From positions 3,814 through 67,813 of the forward strand of contig JAOUJW010000014.1 of NCBI GenBank assembly GCA_029882975.1: a DNA stretch of 64,000 bases, given 5' to 3'. Every line of letters starts with the position of its first letter. The stretch's first letter is position 1. This document shows, in pieces, positions 51,165-60,141 of this stretch. Below the pieces are notes generated by a model, which searched no databases, had not been told where the DNA came from, and was given only the letters and a program-made list of their open reading frames with translations. The stretch is from Gammaproteobacteria bacterium (GTDB taxonomy: Bacteria; Pseudomonadota; Gammaproteobacteria; SZUA-152). The position numbers and the translations under genes are program-made.

Positions 51165-51452
51165 CTATAGGTGGATGTTTACGTCTATGTGCTTGTGGAG
51201 GATTCTGGCAATTATAAGTTGGTTTTTATCTGTCAATTTGTAAAAAATTATATGGCTACCCTGCGGAAATTTTCTGTACCCAGGAGAAATGTAATCGCAG
51301 CTAACACCTGCTGAGGGGCTTTCTGCTAATGAATGAAAGGTCAGGTCAAATTGTTTCAGGTAAATATTTCGCTGTTGTTTCCCCCAAACTTTTTCTGTGT
51401 ATTTAGCTATTCTCAGGTCTGATTTTGCTTTATTCGATAATAGAAAAATCAT
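51165..51452 (-). CDS. parE: Type II toxin, ParE/RelE family
   Basis: 95 aa. The segments AKSDLRIAKYTEKVWG...YRKFPQGSHIIFYKL...IIARILHKHID are ParE-like. It overlaps the antitoxin stop by 4 nt. Confidence 0.85.
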   Translation of the reverse strand: MIFLLSNKAKSDLRIAKYTEKVWGKQQRNIYLKQFDLTFHSLAESPSAGVSCDYISPGYRKFPQGSHIIFYKLTDKNQLIIARILHKHIDVNIHL

Positions 51453-51688
51453 TGATTTTCATCGTCGAGTTGAGCGATAAACTCATCGTAGGAGTAGTCG
51501 GCAATACCGCTATCTTCCCCTTCTTTTAAAAGTTGTCGCAAAGTTTCCAGCTTGGCTTCGTTGTCTTCCAGCAGCCTTAAACCGGCGCGGATCACTTCGC
51601 TCGCTGAGCCATACCGACCGCTATCTAATTGTTTTGCAACAAATTCATCGAAATGATCGCCAAGGGAAATACTTGTATTTTTGGGCAT
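51449..51688 (-). CDS. parD: Type II antitoxin, ParD family (RHH)
   Basis: The start at 51688 gives MPKNTSISLGDHFDEFVAKQLDSGRYGSASEVIRAGLRLLED. Confidence 0.85.
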   Translation of the reverse strand: MPKNTSISLGDHFDEFVAKQLDSGRYGSASEVIRAGLRLLEDNEAKLETLRQLLKEGEDSGIADYSYDEFIAQLDDENQ

Positions 51689-51703
51689 GATAGTCTCGCC
51701 GGT

Positions 51704-51728
51704 TACCAAATATTAATATATTTTGGTA
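51704..51728. promoter_or_regulatory. Inverted repeat TACCAAA-N11-TTTGGTA just upstream of parD; candidate ParD operator
   Basis: The arms lie at 51704-51710 and 51722-51728, 16 nt upstream of the parD ATG. The function is inferred from TA autoregulation. Confidence 0.35.
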
Positions 51729-51946
51729 TATGCCTGCCTATTCGTCAACAATCCATTTTAAAACTGTCCGATGGAAATGAATGAAGTGAAAGTATTATGA
51801 AGCAAGCGACTTGACCCCTAGGTCGTGACCCCTAGGTCCTTCCTTTTGGTATATGCCTGCCTATTCGTCAACAATCCATTTTAAAACTGTCCGATGGAAA
51901 TGAATGAAGTGAAAGTATTATGAAGCAAGCGACTTGACCCCTAGGT
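51721..51946. repeat. Direct duplication: a 103-bp perfect copy at a 123-bp period
   Basis: By manual comparison, 51721-51823 is identical to 51844-51946. Confidence 0.95.
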
Positions 51947-52014
51947 TCTCTTGACCCCTAGGTTCTAGGTCTGTTTTGACCCCTAGGTCTGAAGCAAGCG
52001 ACTTGACCCCTAGG
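51799..52014. repeat. Array of six TGACCCCTAGG motifs (three extended as GAAGCAAGCGACTTGACCCCTAGG)
   Basis: Motif starts are at 51812, 51826, 51935, 51952, 51977 and 52004. Each contains the palindrome CCTAGG. Confidence 0.9.
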
Positions 52015-53120: not shown

Positions 53121-53254
53121 TATTAGGTTCCAGGTGGTTTATGAGATGCTACACATTGTAACCGAAATGGGCTTGTTTTCCCATAATTATGGGACTATAC
53201 TCCCATTTATAAATGGGAAGAAGTTCCCATATTTGGCTGGAATTGGAGGTAAAT

Positions 53255-54694
53255 ATGCGTATTAACAATGGGTTACTGAGAAAGTTGCGAGATTTCAAGT
53301 TTCTGGGTTGGGTTTTTGTGTACCAAGGTTTTCTTGGTGGCTGCAGTACAGGTTCCATGCAGGTGGTTCAGCAAAGCCTGGAGCAGGATCGCATGGTTCC
53401 TGCGGCTGTAGTCGCACAGGAAGATTTTCTCAATCAATACAGCCATCCTTTACCGAGTCCCAAGCAATTATTGGATGTGGACCTGACATTGGAGCGTACC
53501 TCTGTGATGGCCGAAGGAGACCAAGTGTTTCTTCAGGTTGGCGTAGTTACCAAGCCTGCCGAGCTGCAATCGTTGGATTTACATATACTTGTGTTTAATC
53601 CGGATCACACGCCGCAAAATCAGCTGAAGCAAATGTACAATGTCATCCAAGCTGCGGTAGCCAATAAGCTACCGCAAGGATCCAGTCTCACGGTAGACAG
53701 CTTCCGCCCTATGGCGAAACTAACGCAAACGCAAACGCAAACGCAAACGCAAACGCAAACGCAAACGCAATTAATTGAAGGGCACAGTACCGGTTCACTG
53801 GTAGCTTTCGTCAAGCAATATGCGCGTCTACCGGAAAAGAGAGTGAAACAACACTATATCCTTATGCTGGGTGATATGAGTGAATCACAGGAGCAACTGC
53901 AAAACGTCGTGGATCTAGCCTCTGTGCTTCGGGTTAAAGGTGCCGGAATGTCTGTTTTTTCCGTCGCGGAAAAACCGGAGGTCAGTTTTGCCAGTCAATT
54001 GGCTGCCAATGGCAAGGGGCAGGCATCGTTCTTGACGGAAACATTCAATTACCAGGCTTGGTTACAAGAAGAGATATACCGCATCAGTGCCGGCGACATT
54101 ACTGATATTCAGGTGCACATCCAAACCAAATTCGGTGCAACTGTGGCGGAAATAACGTCTCCCTATGCGCCCGTCCAAGCAACAACAGAGTATGTACATA
54201 CAATAGAGAACATGGTGCAGGGCGAGCAGTTTATTATTATGGCCCGGATCAATACGCCGGTCTACGATGCCACAACCTATAACGAAATAGTTGCCGTAGA
54301 AGTGCAATATTTCGACTCGCGCAAGCGTTCGTACGGGAAAATTCGCAAAACCGCTCAAGTGGACTATGTGCTGGACCGCAATCGTGTATTTGACCGAAAC
54401 TGGTTGGTGGAAAGGTCACTGTTGATACTGGAAACTCAGAAAACGCTCGCGGAACTGGAGCCGTTAATTTGGCAAAAACGATACTACAAAGCCGTTGCCA
54501 AACTCAATGAGCACGCTGGGAACCTGTCACGCTACCTTCAAAAGCATAAAGATGATCAGCTGCAACGAGACGTAAGTATCTTGAATGCATACTCTGAACG
54601 TTTGTATGATTTCTCCGAGAAAGCGTTTCAGTCTTTCCGAATTTGGAAAGACCTGTCCTGGGACAAAAATCGTTTAACGGACGAGTATCTTTGA
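53255..54694 (+). CDS. Lipoprotein, YfbK-like (vWA-related) architecture, with a (TQ)8 linker
   Basis: The ATG at 53255 follows GGAGG, with lipobox FLGGCSTGS. The N-terminal QEDFLNQYSHPLPSP resembles the YfbK-type vWF N-terminal motif. The family assignment is tentative. Confidence 0.45.
   Translation: MRINNGLLRKLRDFKFLGWVFVYQGFLGGCSTGSMQVVQQSLEQDRMVPAAVVAQEDFLNQYSHPLPSPKQLLDVDLTLERTSVMAEGDQVFLQVGVVTKPAELQSLDLHILVFNPDHTPQNQLKQMYNVIQAAVANKLPQGSSLTVDSFRPMAKLTQTQTQTQTQTQTQTQLIEGHSTGSLVAFVKQYARLPEKRVKQHYILMLGDMSESQEQLQNVVDLASVLRVKGAGMSVFSVAEKPEVSFASQLAANGKGQASFLTETFNYQAWLQEEIYRISAGDITDIQVHIQTKFGATVAEITSPYAPVQATTEYVHTIENMVQGEQFIIMARINTPVYDATTYNEIVAVEVQYFDSRKRSYGKIRKTAQVDYVLDRNRVFDRNWLVERSLLILETQKTLAELEPLIWQKRYYKAVAKLNEHAGNLSRYLQKHKDDQLQRDVSILNAYSERLYDFSEKAFQSFRIWKDLSWDKNRLTDEYL
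53723..53770 (+). repeat. Hexanucleotide microsatellite (ACGCAA)x8, in frame
   Basis: There are eight perfect units. They encode TQTQTQTQTQTQTQTQ. Confidence 0.95.
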
Positions 54695-57671: not shown

Positions 57672-58346
57672 CTAAGCACTTACTGCGGCTGGGTTAAGGA
57701 TATCAATATCTTCATTAAACAGCTCGTTGAATAATAGCTGAACGAGCGTAAAATCTTCCCGGTCCTCACCTATACATAGTTCTTTATTTGTAATGTTTCT
57801 AGGAAGGCGTATGCTTAACGACTCTTGATGAATCGGATGAAATCCACTTCCTTTAAAATATAATTCACATGCCAAGATCACAGGCAAGAAATCATTTAAC
57901 CGATCGTTCGCTGGAGTGCATTCTATCCAGTTTTGATTAGATTTATCAATTTCCCACTTTTCGATTGCCATCAAGTACACTGGGGATATTACGCTTATTT
58001 CCACTACTAACACCCAAATCGGTTTTCCCAACTTATTAAGTAATTCTATATCGTTGCCGGTAAATACTGCTCCCTCAGTAAGCAAAATCTTAATTTCTGC
58101 GGACCATTTTCCTTCCTCGAAACCTATTATGTCGTTGTATTTGTAATCAAGGCTTGCGATTTCACTTTCGAGAAACTCTCTAAAAGGCGTTAGTATTTGA
58201 TCGCATCGTTCACGCAATTGTGTTTGTATCGATTCTACTTCGTCATTTGGAGTGGTGGGGCGCAATAGAGGTTTGAGGCGTTGCCGAATGTCATTGTATA
58301 AATGTTCGTTATCGATTCCATCGACTATGTTCGAATCTTGTTTCAT
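57672..58346 (-). CDS. Hypothetical 224-aa protein; candidate immunity or accessory protein
   Basis: Its start codon overlaps the stop of the PAAR-like gene by 1 nt. It has no signal peptide or TM segment, and I recognised no family. Confidence 0.4.
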   Translation of the reverse strand: MKQDSNIVDGIDNEHLYNDIRQRLKPLLRPTTPNDEVESIQTQLRERCDQILTPFREFLESEIASLDYKYNDIIGFEEGKWSAEIKILLTEGAVFTGNDIELLNKLGKPIWVLVVEISVISPVYLMAIEKWEIDKSNQNWIECTPANDRLNDFLPVILACELYFKGSGFHPIHQESLSIRLPRNITNKELCIGEDREDFTLVQLLFNELFNEDIDILNPAAVSA

Positions 58347-59083
58347 TAGTGCCTACCTCGTCTTTGACTCGATTTGAGTTTGTCAATTTTATCAGAAGCT
58401 TGTTTTGTAAGTTTGATTACGACCTTTGAGCTTTTATCATTTTGACCCGCGAGTTCGCATAATGTCTTATCGAAGTCATCTGAGGTTACATCTTTTTGTT
58501 TTCGAAAAGTGCCTAAGCCTTCTTTTATTAGTTCCGAAGGTTTTTTGTCACCTTTTTCATTGAGATTTCCTAAGTTTTTATGATGTTGGCCACACTTCGA
58601 ACATTTGGGAGGTTCTTTTTTTTCTGCTTCAGTTTCGGTTGCGCTTGTTTCTGGATCTTGAATATCTCCCATCATAGTTGCTGAATTGGCTGGAGTGCCA
58701 CTACCCCCACCATTGTTTGTCATTATATCTGCCAATAGGTGTACATTTTTCCCTTCAAACTTTACGTCCATTGAGCCTGGGCTTATAAATTTGCAAGGTC
58801 CATGCGTGTTTGCGGATACTAGGCCACCACCCGTCCCTTTGCTGGCCATATCCCCTATGCTTTTGAAGCTTGCACCTTTCACCGCCACCGTCTTTTTTTC
58901 GACTTTGACTTTCTTTGTGTATCCTTTTGGGCTATCGCCGGACTTTCCAATATTGGGAAGAGGTGCGGGTACAAATGGTGCCGGTGGGCCTGGCATTTTG
59001 CACACATTGGGTAATGTAGCAGTTGCTATGCCGTTGCTGCCTTTAGTAACGGGAGTTTTTGGAGGGTTGACGCCAACACTCAT
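58346..59083 (-). CDS. DUF4150 PAAR-like protein with a C-terminal extension (candidate T6SS effector)
   Basis: 245 aa. The N-terminal ~125 aa are VTKGSNGIATATLPNVCKMPGPPAPFVPAPLPNIG...VKFEGKNVHLLADIMTNNGG, the DUF4150 pattern. An acidic linker and an 87-aa Lys-rich tail follow. Confidence 0.7.
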   Translation of the reverse strand: MSVGVNPPKTPVTKGSNGIATATLPNVCKMPGPPAPFVPAPLPNIGKSGDSPKGYTKKVKVEKKTVAVKGASFKSIGDMASKGTGGGLVSANTHGPCKFISPGSMDVKFEGKNVHLLADIMTNNGGGSGTPANSATMMGDIQDPETSATETEAEKKEPPKCSKCGQHHKNLGNLNEKGDKKPSELIKEGLGTFRKQKDVTSDDFDKTLCELAGQNDKSSKVVIKLTKQASDKIDKLKSSQRRGRH

Positions 59084-60141
59084 TATGCGGCTTCCTCAAG
59101 GGGTAAGTTTAATAATGTGGCGGCTCGTGTTCCTGCTTCGGAACTGTTCCAAATCAAGTAATGGTTTCCCTTTGCGCTTGATTGTAAGCCTGCAACCACC
59201 GCCAAAATAACAAATAAGGGGGCGGATGCTGCGCCCATGTCTCCCCAGCAACTGGCTGGGATTTCATAATCCGTTGGGTCGACGAAAGACTCTGCCAGTC
59301 TTAAAAGGGTGAAGCCCCATTCTTCGCCTCGATAGCGTTCTCCGTTTATGTCGCAGATGATGCCCTCTACCATAGCGTTTATGGAATTCAATGTTGACAC
59401 GGTGTTTCTAATGGATTCTGTCAGGCCGTCTCCGGTGCAGACTGAGTCGGTTTTAATCAAGTTCTGTTCTATGGCAATGCTGGGGTATTGGATGGTTGCC
59501 AATGAATTTAGGTTGAGGCGTTTTACAACGGACTCTGGAGCTATGGCAAACGCACCTGCGCCTTCCCCTGGAAAGAACGCGCCCCGGTGGTAGGAAGTAG
59601 CCAGTTGCTTGTTGTCGTCCAGCCATCCCAGTGTGTCTATGTTGATATAACTATCCACGCCTGCGACGATGCAAACATGCGCTTTCCCGGAATGGAGTTC
59701 ATCACAGGCTTTTTGTAGTGCGCACAAGCCTGCTGCGTGTCCCTTACTGACCGGTTTGATTTTTTCCAGCGTAAACGCATAGTCTTCCTGCGCCAGCGCC
59801 AGGCAAACGGCTTGCGCATTTTCTGGGTTCCAGCCCGGTCTGGGTTCTGGTAAACCTAAATAAACCGGAACGCTTTGTACTTTTGCTTGTATGGGTTCCA
59901 ATTGTTCAAACAATTCGTCCAAGGCGGATTTGGCCAGCTGTTTGAAGCGTTCCAGGTTGGGTAAGTCCGGTTCGAGGATATGGTCTTGGGCCAGTAGTAC
60001 CGGTTCTCCAATTCTGTCAACGATAAAGGGATGTTCTTCAAATCTGGTGATGTTAGCGCTCACGGCAGCGCAGCTCGATGCGGCGTCCAGGCCCAGCGGC
60101 GTGCGGGCTCCATAGGCGATGATGTGAATCGGTTCACTCAT
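59083..60141 (-). CDS. Thiolase-fold (beta-ketoacyl synthase-like) protein, apparently non-catalytic
   Basis: 352 aa. It has KAS-like segments (IIAYGARTPLG, VCIVAGVDS, GDMGAASAP). It is translationally coupled on both sides. Confidence 0.6.
   Translation of the reverse strand: MSEPIHIIAYGARTPLGLDAASSCAAVSANITRFEEHPFIVDRIGEPVLLAQDHILEPDLPNLERFKQLAKSALDELFEQLEPIQAKVQSVPVYLGLPEPRPGWNPENAQAVCLALAQEDYAFTLEKIKPVSKGHAAGLCALQKACDELHSGKAHVCIVAGVDSYINIDTLGWLDDNKQLATSYHRGAFFPGEGAGAFAIAPESVVKRLNLNSLATIQYPSIAIEQNLIKTDSVCTGDGLTESIRNTVSTLNSINAMVEGIICDINGERYRGEEWGFTLLRLAESFVDPTDYEIPASCWGDMGAASAPLFVILAVVAGLQSSAKGNHYLIWNSSEAGTRAATLLNLPLEEAA

Follow-up and report, generated by a model that had tools for sequence, protein, structure and literature searches.

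Does the short basic tail of a spike-tip protein encode a toxin, and does the gene behind it encode the antidote? This question is raised by a type VI secretion system (T6SS) gene cluster on contig JAOUJW010000014.1 of an uncultured Gammaproteobacteria bacterium sampled in a sediment metagenome (assembly GCA_029882975.1), of which we analyzed a stretch of 64,000 nucleotides, here called the window. The cluster encodes a 245-amino-acid (aa) PAAR-like protein that begins with a DUF4150 domain, also referred to as PIPY, and ends in a Lys-rich tail. A preliminary description of this DNA had singled out the tail as a candidate new or minimal toxin, had noted a loose likeness to HNH/GHH-type nucleases such as the one fused to DUF4150 in Tse7, and had allowed that the tail could instead be an adaptor for another cargo protein. 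We found the tail to be a real, conserved and very rare domain that is encoded, in every copy, directly upstream of one family of acidic proteins. We consider a new small toxin/antidote pair, carried by a specialized T6SS effector, to be the most likely explanation of this arrangement; we hold this view with moderate confidence, and the function remains a candidate one.

The tail is a conserved domain without detectable relatives

The N-terminal part of the protein matched Pfam PF13665 (Tox-PAAR-like/DUF4150) at aa 21-125 (E value 2.3e-17; 63.5 bits against a cutoff of 31), which is the N-terminal DUF4150 expected of a specialized PIPY effector. In the lineage of the window protein the PIPY motif reads P-L-P-N, not P(I/V)P(Y/F). 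An acidic linker, only 11-39% identical among family members, leads into the tail, which starts at P158, comprises 88 aa, opens with PPKCSKCGQHHKNLGNLN and closes with RRGRH. With 17 lysines and four arginines the tail has a net charge of +9 and an isoelectric point (pI) of 9.7, and its landmarks are a CxxCGxHH knuckle (aa 161-168), Cys211 and the C-terminal R-R-G-R-H. No hydrophobic segment was found in the tail; its maximum 19-residue Kyte-Doolittle mean was 0.01, a value on which we rejected a transmembrane or pore-forming tail. The span originally highlighted, 58346-58708, corresponds to aa ~126-245 plus the stop codon. Its coordinates and the description of the tail were correct, with DIQDPETSATETEAEKKE and PPKCSKCGQHHKNLGNLN...TLCELAG both lying in the 245-aa open reading frame (ORF).

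The tail proved to be very rare. Among 5.8 billion proteins there were 1743 homologues of the 245-aa protein, and only four of them carried the tail (P0002-P0005; 243-248 aa, 72-82% identical). A word-indexed search of 5.8 billion proteins with a tail-only profile added one protein, P0121, and a scan of Joint Genome Institute (JGI) metagenomes added one further copy, L012. No tail copy was found in the 185,579 species-representative genomes of GTDB or in a plasmid search. When 1.84 billion cluster representatives were searched exhaustively with HMMER, the sole match was a repetitive 474-aa protein (E 2.5e-4), which we judged spurious. The tail family thus consists of seven sequences, all of them uncultured (metagenomic or from metagenome-assembled genomes, MAGs): the window and loci L001, L002, L009, L010, L012 and L013.

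Searches of family databases did not place the tail. A Pfam-A hmmscan at E<=10 returned only a chance match to CFAP298 (E 0.011), NCBIfam returned no match, the PHROGs matches all had E>=0.16, and PDB sequence searches with the protein and with the family profile gave a best E of 0.7 for the tail. The earlier inability to assign the tail to a family was borne out in all four resources.

We measured selection on each region from codon alignments of the window with L002, L009 and L010, using the proportions of nonsynonymous (pN) and synonymous (pS) sites that differ. The six other tail copies are 66-87% identical even though synonymous sites are saturated (pS ~0.9-1.0). Values of pN were 0.08-0.22 for the tail and 0.07-0.16 for the PIPY domain, as compared with 0.41-0.48 for the linker and 0.32-0.45 for the protein encoded downstream. 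Because this level of identity has been kept despite saturated synonymous sites, we conclude that the tail is more than chance sequence and is under strong purifying selection. With constrained homologous copies and no family match, the tail is a true C-terminal domain of the PAAR-like protein and belongs to no classified family, as had been proposed. A slowly evolving payload next to a faster evolving partner is typical of toxin/immunity pairs.

A structure prediction and a fold search had been suggested as a check on the toxin idea. AlphaFold2 modeled aa 156-242 at a predicted local distance difference test score (pLDDT) of 72-82, with helices at 172-177, 182-189, 201-204, 208-212 and 217-242 and no strands, in a model whose input alignment had 25 rows, only five of which reach past aa 139 into the tail. 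The linker had a pLDDT below 50, and the PIPY core was modeled poorly (pLDDT 30-38). Foldseek found no structure similar to the full-length model in PDB or BFVD (best E 6 and 4). The check thus returned a helical tail, no metal-finger fold and no match to a known domain.

Every tail copy is followed by one family of acidic proteins

In all seven loci (7/7) the tail lies directly upstream of a gene for a protein of 212-235 aa, and these proteins form a single family, represented in the window by a 224-aa member. The partner is full or near-full length in the window, L001, L002, L009 and L012, and the contigs of L010 and L013 end inside its N-terminus. A search with the 224-aa protein found no family members beyond those next to tails. 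Identity of the window partner to its homologues is 50% for L002 (E 5e-77) and 36% for L001 (E 5e-49). Every partner is acidic (pI 4.2-4.5), the window copy having a pI of 4.5 and a net charge of -18; their N-termini are hydrophilic, and no signal peptide was obvious by eye.

The stop codon of the tail overlaps the ATG of the partner (TAATG or TGATG) in six of the seven loci, with TAATG in the window, and the codons for the C-terminal R-[RK]-G-R of the tail form the GAGG/GGAG Shine-Dalgarno sequence of the partner. In the window these are the codons of the conserved C-terminal R-[RK]-G-R-H at 58346-58363, with the Shine-Dalgarno sequence within them. The R-[RK]-G-R codons vary synonymously between loci, so the amino acids are constrained too and the motif is under dual constraint.

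AlphaFold2 predicted an alpha+beta fold for the partner, with two long helices, a five-stranded antiparallel sheet and one more helix (predicted template modeling score, pTM, 0.74; pLDDT about 90 for aa 40-175). A Foldseek search of this model against PDB found nothing significant, the best matches (E 0.08-1.3) being to non-enzymes such as capping protein, Crl and TipC2. Comparison with the T6SS adaptor and chaperone families DUF1795 (Eag), DUF4123 (Tap/Tec) and DUF2169 gave no Pfam, NCBIfam or significant Foldseek match. DcrB, which we take to be a DUF1795 family member, was among the Foldseek matches, with an E value of 2.6 and a TM score of 0.12-0.16.

The tail and its partner are exchanged as one cassette

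The N-termini of homologues were 76-91% identical over aa 1-139 in the sample that we aligned, and the best 112 homologues, clustered by the body of the C-terminus, had at least 19 unrelated C-termini. This PIPY lineage therefore carries variable C-termini on a conserved N-terminus. Sister loci share the scaffold VgrG-(DUF6484)-DUF2169-PRK06147-PIPY...(methyltransferase)-HEAT, and in L003, L004, L005 and L014 this scaffold has other C-termini, followed by unrelated genes. One sister C-terminus is DNase_NucA_NucB and is followed by a SMI1_KNR4 immunity gene. The window partner showed no similarity to the genes that follow other PIPY C-termini.

The borders of the exchange could be located at the DNA level. 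L009, which has the tail, matches L014, which has another C-terminus, at 82% identity as far as codon ~156 in the PIPY gene (KKEP|C), and this identity breaks off at the 3' end of the linker, immediately before the first Cys. The two loci are unrelated through the C-terminus and the downstream gene, and homology is back (71%) in the methyltransferase gene, which forms the right-hand border of the swapped cassette. The C-terminus thus co-varies and is jointly exchanged with the downstream gene, with borders at codon ~156 and ahead of the methyltransferase gene. In L001, the same tail and partner stand behind a PIPY domain just 46% identical to that of the window, and identity between the tails is 66-73%. 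Taken together, these results show that tail and 224-aa ORF make up a polymorphic toxin/immunity-type cassette in the Tse7/Tsi7 position. Both the invariable pairing and the cassette borders agree with the idea that the tail behaves as a polymorphic toxin domain, with the downstream ORF as its candidate cognate immunity gene.

The structure of the L001 copy (989-1690; MAG GCA_964524595.1) deserves separate description. Its PIPY domain is of a divergent type with the canonical PVPY motif; one TAG and two codons stand between this domain and the tail, and the frame does not change (...KKFHNH*NTVNLAGD...). Gene calling gave the tail an ORF of its own, with a GTG start. We read this locus as an interrupted fusion, arising from a nonsense mutation, read-through or an assembly error. 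Given that both ORFs share one frame, with only the TAG and two codons between them, we rejected an independent tail gene and a designed split.

Of the close homologues that we scanned, ten with other C-termini likewise matched nothing in Pfam apart from PIPY. Proteins of about 370-400 aa in total, among them P0010, P0014, P0019, P0054 and P0114, carry the largest C-terminal family on the scaffold. Their motifs, a pattern reminiscent of zinc-dependent deaminases, are CPxC...H close to the junction, 'MIGVVHC', C[AV][AE]Q and, at the C-terminus, PPCxTC; they have no Pfam match beyond PIPY.

A candidate toxin/antidote pair and its alternatives

In the mechanism that we favor, the PIPY cone would cap the VgrG trimer with the help of the DUF2169 (TvpA) and PRK06147 (TvpD) chaperones, as in the literature cited below. 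The flexible acidic linker would tether the basic, all-helical 88-residue tail as the payload, and the tail domain and the next gene would make up one exchangeable cassette. In the producing cell, the translationally coupled 224-aa acidic protein would bind and neutralize the tail, a role in immunity that its cassette behavior, charge and position suggest. After firing, the tail may act in the cytoplasm of the rival bacterium, because inspection by eye revealed no obvious export signal in either protein, and both lack a membrane segment. Its target may be polyanionic (DNA, RNA or the ribosome), because the domain is of ~10 kDa, has a net charge of +9 and no hydrophobic segment, and is paired with a partner of net charge -18; we speculate that it could work by stoichiometric binding and not through an active site of the classical sort. 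The tail opens with CxxCG-H, which is probably a small knuckle stabilized by a metal or a disulfide and not an HNH catalytic center. Any particular target is much less probable than the toxin/antidote pair itself.

A bolder version of this proposal, which we think rather unlikely, is that the tail founds a minimal class of T6SS toxin (~10 kDa, all-helical and knuckle-capped) whose members would kill by binding stoichiometrically to some polyanion or machine of the cytoplasm, such as the ribosome, the nucleoid or RNA polymerase. In this version the Cys at the junction with the spike-tip domain, often part of a Cys...His pattern, would be a previously unnoticed metal or disulfide staple that joins payloads to the spike-tip cone.

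Several points weigh against a toxin/antidote pair. Toxicity and binding of the tail by its partner are candidate functions only. The tail has 88 residues, about 10 of which may be a generic junction knuckle; an enzyme of this size would be very small, and we can point to no catalytic motif. The family consists of seven metagenomic or MAG sequences, too few for arguments from orphan immunity genes or from distribution, and the L001 copy, with its in-frame TAG between PIPY and tail, is possibly a pseudogene, a case of read-through or an assembly error. The helical fold of the tail and any metal site are provisional, because just five of the 25 alignment rows behind the model cover the tail. Finally, strict pairing with an acidic partner is equally expected of a chaperone or cargo relationship.

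A cargo relationship would hold if the tail were a non-toxic adaptor that docks the acidic 224-aa protein, the real effector, onto the spike. Strict 1:1 co-occurrence and charge complementarity suit any tight complex, the tail lacks a catalytic motif and is very small, and PMC13373197 describes the class III Tvp effector as a separate VgrG-associated protein and not as a domain of the PAAR-like protein. However, a toxic 224-aa protein would need an immunity gene of its own, and no further candidate follows: the next genes are conserved accessory genes and encode the methyltransferase or HEAT protein (window, L002, L009) or a second DUF2169 protein (L001). The 224-aa protein, the sole partner candidate, sits exactly in the Tsi7 slot, is fast-evolving (pN 0.32-0.45) and has no enzyme-like fold match. 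The adaptor alternative, which had been raised at the outset, is thus disfavored, and we regard it as improbable.

We give a similarly low chance to an arrangement without any payload, in which the tail is a structural extension or a degenerate remnant that only takes up space in the baseplate cavity or stabilizes the spike tip, and the partner is its dedicated chaperone. A PAAR-attached moiety that partly fills the baseplate cavity is discussed in PMC13373197. The tail is also the shortest C-terminus among close homologues (243-248 aa in total against 255-418 aa for most others), and one copy, L001, is broken by a stop codon. Yet tail and PIPY domain are under equally strong purifying selection, and tail and partner swap as a unit, like the recognized toxin/immunity cassettes in the same slot. 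A filler, moreover, would need no private, co-varying and translationally coupled partner. We continue to favor a toxin/antidote pair.

A cysteine recurs at the junction with unrelated C-termini

The CxxCG-HH-N...LC skeleton that had suggested a nuclease is indeed present in the tail. A minimal His-Me finger nuclease (HNH/Tox-GHH-like) would use CxxC...C for a structural zinc, HH as its dyad and N175 as the HNH Asn. The tail has G-x-H-H beside CxxC, N175 and C211 are invariant, the domain is basic, and Tse7 carries Tox-GHH2 in the homologous slot (PMC9846239). Invariance of the motif residues has no statistical weight by itself, because the seven sequences are few and close relatives, with 45-51 of the ~92 columns of the tail alignment invariant. 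The likeness to the cores of HNH, Tox-GHH, GHH2, SHH and AHH proteins is at the motif level only, consisting of a short His-His motif near Cys in a basic domain; unlike these cores, the tail has no profile match, no predicted beta-beta-alpha topology, no invariant HH and no distal metal ligand.

The details of these differences are as follows. No HNH-type Pfam model matched the tail at E<=10, and neither the PDB profile search (best E 0.7) nor the fold search returned a match. The DSSP assignment of the AlphaFold2 model, which rests on a shallow alignment, has helices only over aa 156-242, where a beta-hairpin and helix around the metal site would be required. In L012, K-P-H-K stands in place of x-H-H-K, with Pro for the first His. 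No His is conserved at aa 169-244, the following helix has no conserved His, Asn or Asp that could serve as a distal metal ligand, and E188 is Q in P0005. A similar C-x2-C-G-x2-H, with one His, opens the unrelated C-terminus of P0006, and a Cys occurs at the junction in most of the families (see below). Given the profile search, the predicted topology and the natural PH variant, we rejected the HNH/GHH likeness as a guide to function and consider a His-Me finger nuclease very improbable.

The first Cys of the tail is part of a wider pattern. Among the 112 close homologues (P0001-P0120), the first Cys lies 13-27 residues past the PIPY core in 17 of 19 unrelated C-terminal families. With a background Cys frequency of 3.1%, a 15-residue segment has a Cys about 38% of the time, and a binomial estimate that treats the clusters as independent gives p of about 4e-6 for the enrichment. 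A His lies within 8 residues of the junction Cys in nine of the 19 families, and a CxxC is found in four of 19; in the tail this CxxC is C161-C164, at window positions 58592-58603. The C-terminus of P0006 is otherwise unrelated and opens with the same C-x2-C-G-x2-H as the tail, and hhalign gave the two a probability of 72%. A sub-domain shared by the first half of the tail and P0006 was rejected, since without the linker and CxxCGxxH shuffles gave p = 0.33, 0.0015 (in a different register) and 0.10. As judged from these alignments, the tail and the P0006 C-terminus share only the junction motif.

Since the first Cys recurs in 17 of 19 unrelated C-termini, C161 and perhaps also H168 are better seen as parts of a junction element common to the lineage than as members of a catalytic center. 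The junction Cys might be a metal or disulfide staple, or an element of the recombination junction. A zinc site formed by the CxxC together with Cys97 of PIPY was not supported: CxxC had no association with Cys97 as opposed to Thr97 (39/69 vs 19/40), and DUF4150/PIPY domains reportedly lack the PAAR zinc site (PMC11883445). Residues C28 and H94 of PIPY are possible ligands.

The least credible alternative is that the tail is a secreted zinc-scavenging module and not an antibacterial toxin; T6SS-exported metal-binding proteins are known and the tail is Cys/His-rich at its start (C161, C164, H167/H168, C211), but such a module would not need a cognate, co-varying cytoplasmic partner, has just four to five potential ligands here, and would sit on a spike tip that is fired into target cells.

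The gene cluster resembles that of Tse7

The genes for VgrG, DUF2169, the PRK06147-like protein, PIPY, the partner, the methyltransferase and the HEAT-repeat protein follow one another in this order on the minus strand, with overlapping or abutting ORFs (Table 1). The stop of the PRK06147-like gene overlaps the start of the PIPY gene.

Table 1. Positions in the window of the spike-tip gene, its parts and the genes of its cluster
Feature	Position	Strand	Evidence and remarks
DUF4150 PAAR-like protein ORF	58346-59083	-	245 aa; DUF4150/PIPY core, acidic linker and Lys-rich tail
PIPY/DUF4150 spike-tip domain, aa 1-139	58667..59083	-	Pfam PF13665; 76-91% identity to N-termini with other C-termini
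Acidic variable linker, aa 140-157, DIQDPETSATETEAEKKE	58613..58666	-	pN; low identity; pLDDT <50
Orphan basic helical tail, aa 158-245 (candidate toxin domain)	58349..58612	-	Constraint, AlphaFold2, rarity; stop codon 58346-58348
Acidic 224-aa partner (candidate cognate immunity protein)	57672..58346	-	No Pfam/NCBIfam family; 7-member family
VgrG spike protein, 704 aa	61151..63265	-	Pfam Phage_GPD E 5e-111, Gp5_trimer_C, Phage_base_V; TIGR03361 E 5.5e-199
DUF2169 chaperone (TvpA-type), 336 aa	60138..61148	-	Pfam DUF2169 E 4.4e-80; role from PMC11883445, PMC13373197
PRK06147 thiolase/ketoacyl-synthase-like (TvpD-type co-chaperone), 352 aa	59083..60141	-	PRK06147 (NCBIfam) E 2.1e-60, below the curated cutoff; ketoacyl-synt E 4.9e-7
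Methyltransferase with MethyTransf_Reg, 493 aa	56187..57668	-	Pfam; weak PKMT winged-helix match
TIGR02270/HEAT-repeat protein, 417 aa	54823..56076	-	TIGR02270 E 1e-112; HEAT_2; synteny type A accessory gene

Genes for VgrG, TvpA, TvpD and an armadillo/HEAT TIGR02270 protein are thus all present around the effector gene, and the cluster is of DUF2169 synteny type A, or Tvp class II. Synteny type A was defined by Sachar et al. (PMC11883445), where the TIGR02270 protein is called 'armadillo-like repeat'; class II was defined by Monlezun et al. (PMC13373197), where PA0098 (PRK06147) is named TvpD. The model cluster of both schemes is vgrG1b of Pseudomonas aeruginosa, with PA0096 (TvpC), PA0097 (TvpA), PA0098 (TvpD) and Tse7 (PMC11883445, PMC13373197). 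The window cluster departs from the class II definition in having no DUF6484 (TvpC) gene between vgrG and DUF2169: there is no ORF between the end of vgrG (61151) and the start of DUF2169 (61148), and such a gene could lie outside the window. The sole DUF6484 signal in the window cluster was a weak match within the oligonucleotide/oligosaccharide-binding (OB) fold region of VgrG. A DUF6484 gene is present in the sister loci L002, L004, L005 and L014.

The comparison with Tse7 drawn in the preliminary description is apt at the level of the system, as the window cluster is syntenic with the P. aeruginosa Tse7 cluster. In P. aeruginosa, PA0099 (tse7) encodes DUF4150 (aa 1-135) followed by Tox-GHH2, the next gene, PA0100 (tsi7), encodes the immunity protein, and the locus swaps the C-terminus, from aa ~135, jointly with the immunity gene on a constant DUF4150 scaffold (PMC9846239). 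The window protein likewise has an N-terminal DUF4150/PIPY domain of ~135-140 aa and then a variable C-terminus, with the gene directly after the effector in the immunity slot. The flanking genes also agree with the vgrG1b cluster, with VgrG, DUF2169 (TvpA) and PRK06147 (TvpD) upstream and HEAT/armadillo TIGR02270 downstream. The systems differ in the C-terminus, which is a ~180-aa Tox-GHH2 nuclease in Tse7 and an 88-aa helical orphan domain without a GHH2/HNH match here. The window further differs from the Tse7 cluster in lacking DUF6484 (TvpC) between vgrG and DUF2169 and in the insertion of an additional gene, for a PKMT-like methyltransferase, after the partner and ahead of the HEAT gene.

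Other effectors share parts of this plan. Tsd1-TsdI1, a cytidine deaminase and its immunity protein at the tse7 locus of clinical P. aeruginosa (PMC9846239), exemplifies the same exchange of C-terminus and immunity gene that we observed between L009 and L014 and across the 19 families; Tsd1 has recognizable HAE/PCxxC deaminase motifs, whereas the tail has no recognizable motif. Tde2 of Agrobacterium tumefaciens (Tvp class I) and PefE of Proteus mirabilis also have a PIPY/DUF4150 N-terminus fused to an effector C-terminus and rely on a DUF2169 chaperone (Tap2 for Tde2) or on conserved cluster genes. Class I (Tde2/Tap2) lacks the thiolase-like and HEAT genes, unlike the window cluster.

In the window, L003, L004, L005, L009 and L014, a gene for a methyltransferase of ~450-500 aa recurs after the immunity slot and ahead of the HEAT gene; the L001 and L002 clusters do not have it. 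Besides a class I methyltransferase domain the protein contains MethyTransf_Reg and has a weak PKMT winged-helix match. The word 'methyltransferase' does not occur in two published accounts of T6SS accessory proteins (PMC11883445, PMC13373197). The methyltransferase could be an accessory factor that has gone unrecognized and that might, for instance, modify lysines in the spike-tip protein, which is very rich in Lys.

On the plus strand, antisense to the PIPY gene, there is a 174-aa Pro/Leu-rich ORF (58686-59210), which is most probably a shadow of the coding strand and which we did not count as a gene.

Other features of the window

A second, unrelated kind of toxin system lies at 51165-51709 on the minus strand, where overlapping ORFs encode a type II toxin-antitoxin pair of ParE toxin (95 aa; PF05016, E 6.7e-15) and ParD antitoxin (86 aa; PF03693, E 1.4e-33). 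Just past the ParD end of this pair, at 51721-51963, a 123-bp unit is present in two copies (96% match), with short TGACCCCTAGGTC repeats within it. At 53722-53770 there is a perfect hexanucleotide array, AACGCA x 8.2, that encodes a (TQ)n run inside a 493-aa ORF (53213-54694) with no confident Pfam family.

Significance

Systems of this kind are known: the specialized PIPY effector is encoded in a class II Tvp cluster, and its C-terminus and immunity gene form an exchangeable cassette. What is new is the two families, tail and partner, for neither of which we detected a relative or a matching fold; the tail is also unusually small. The practical importance is modest, because polymorphic toxins often yield new C-terminal domains and only seven environmental sequences have this one. 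The sediment-dwelling PIPY lineage to which the protein belongs is of wider interest, with at least 19 C-terminal families, a recurrent junction Cys and a frequent PKMT-like methyltransferase. If the tail is toxic, the T6SS arsenal would gain a new, unusually small toxin family along with a new family of immunity proteins. The tail/partner pair is cleanly delimited and easily tested, and it could reveal non-enzymatic killing or a new cytoplasmic target.

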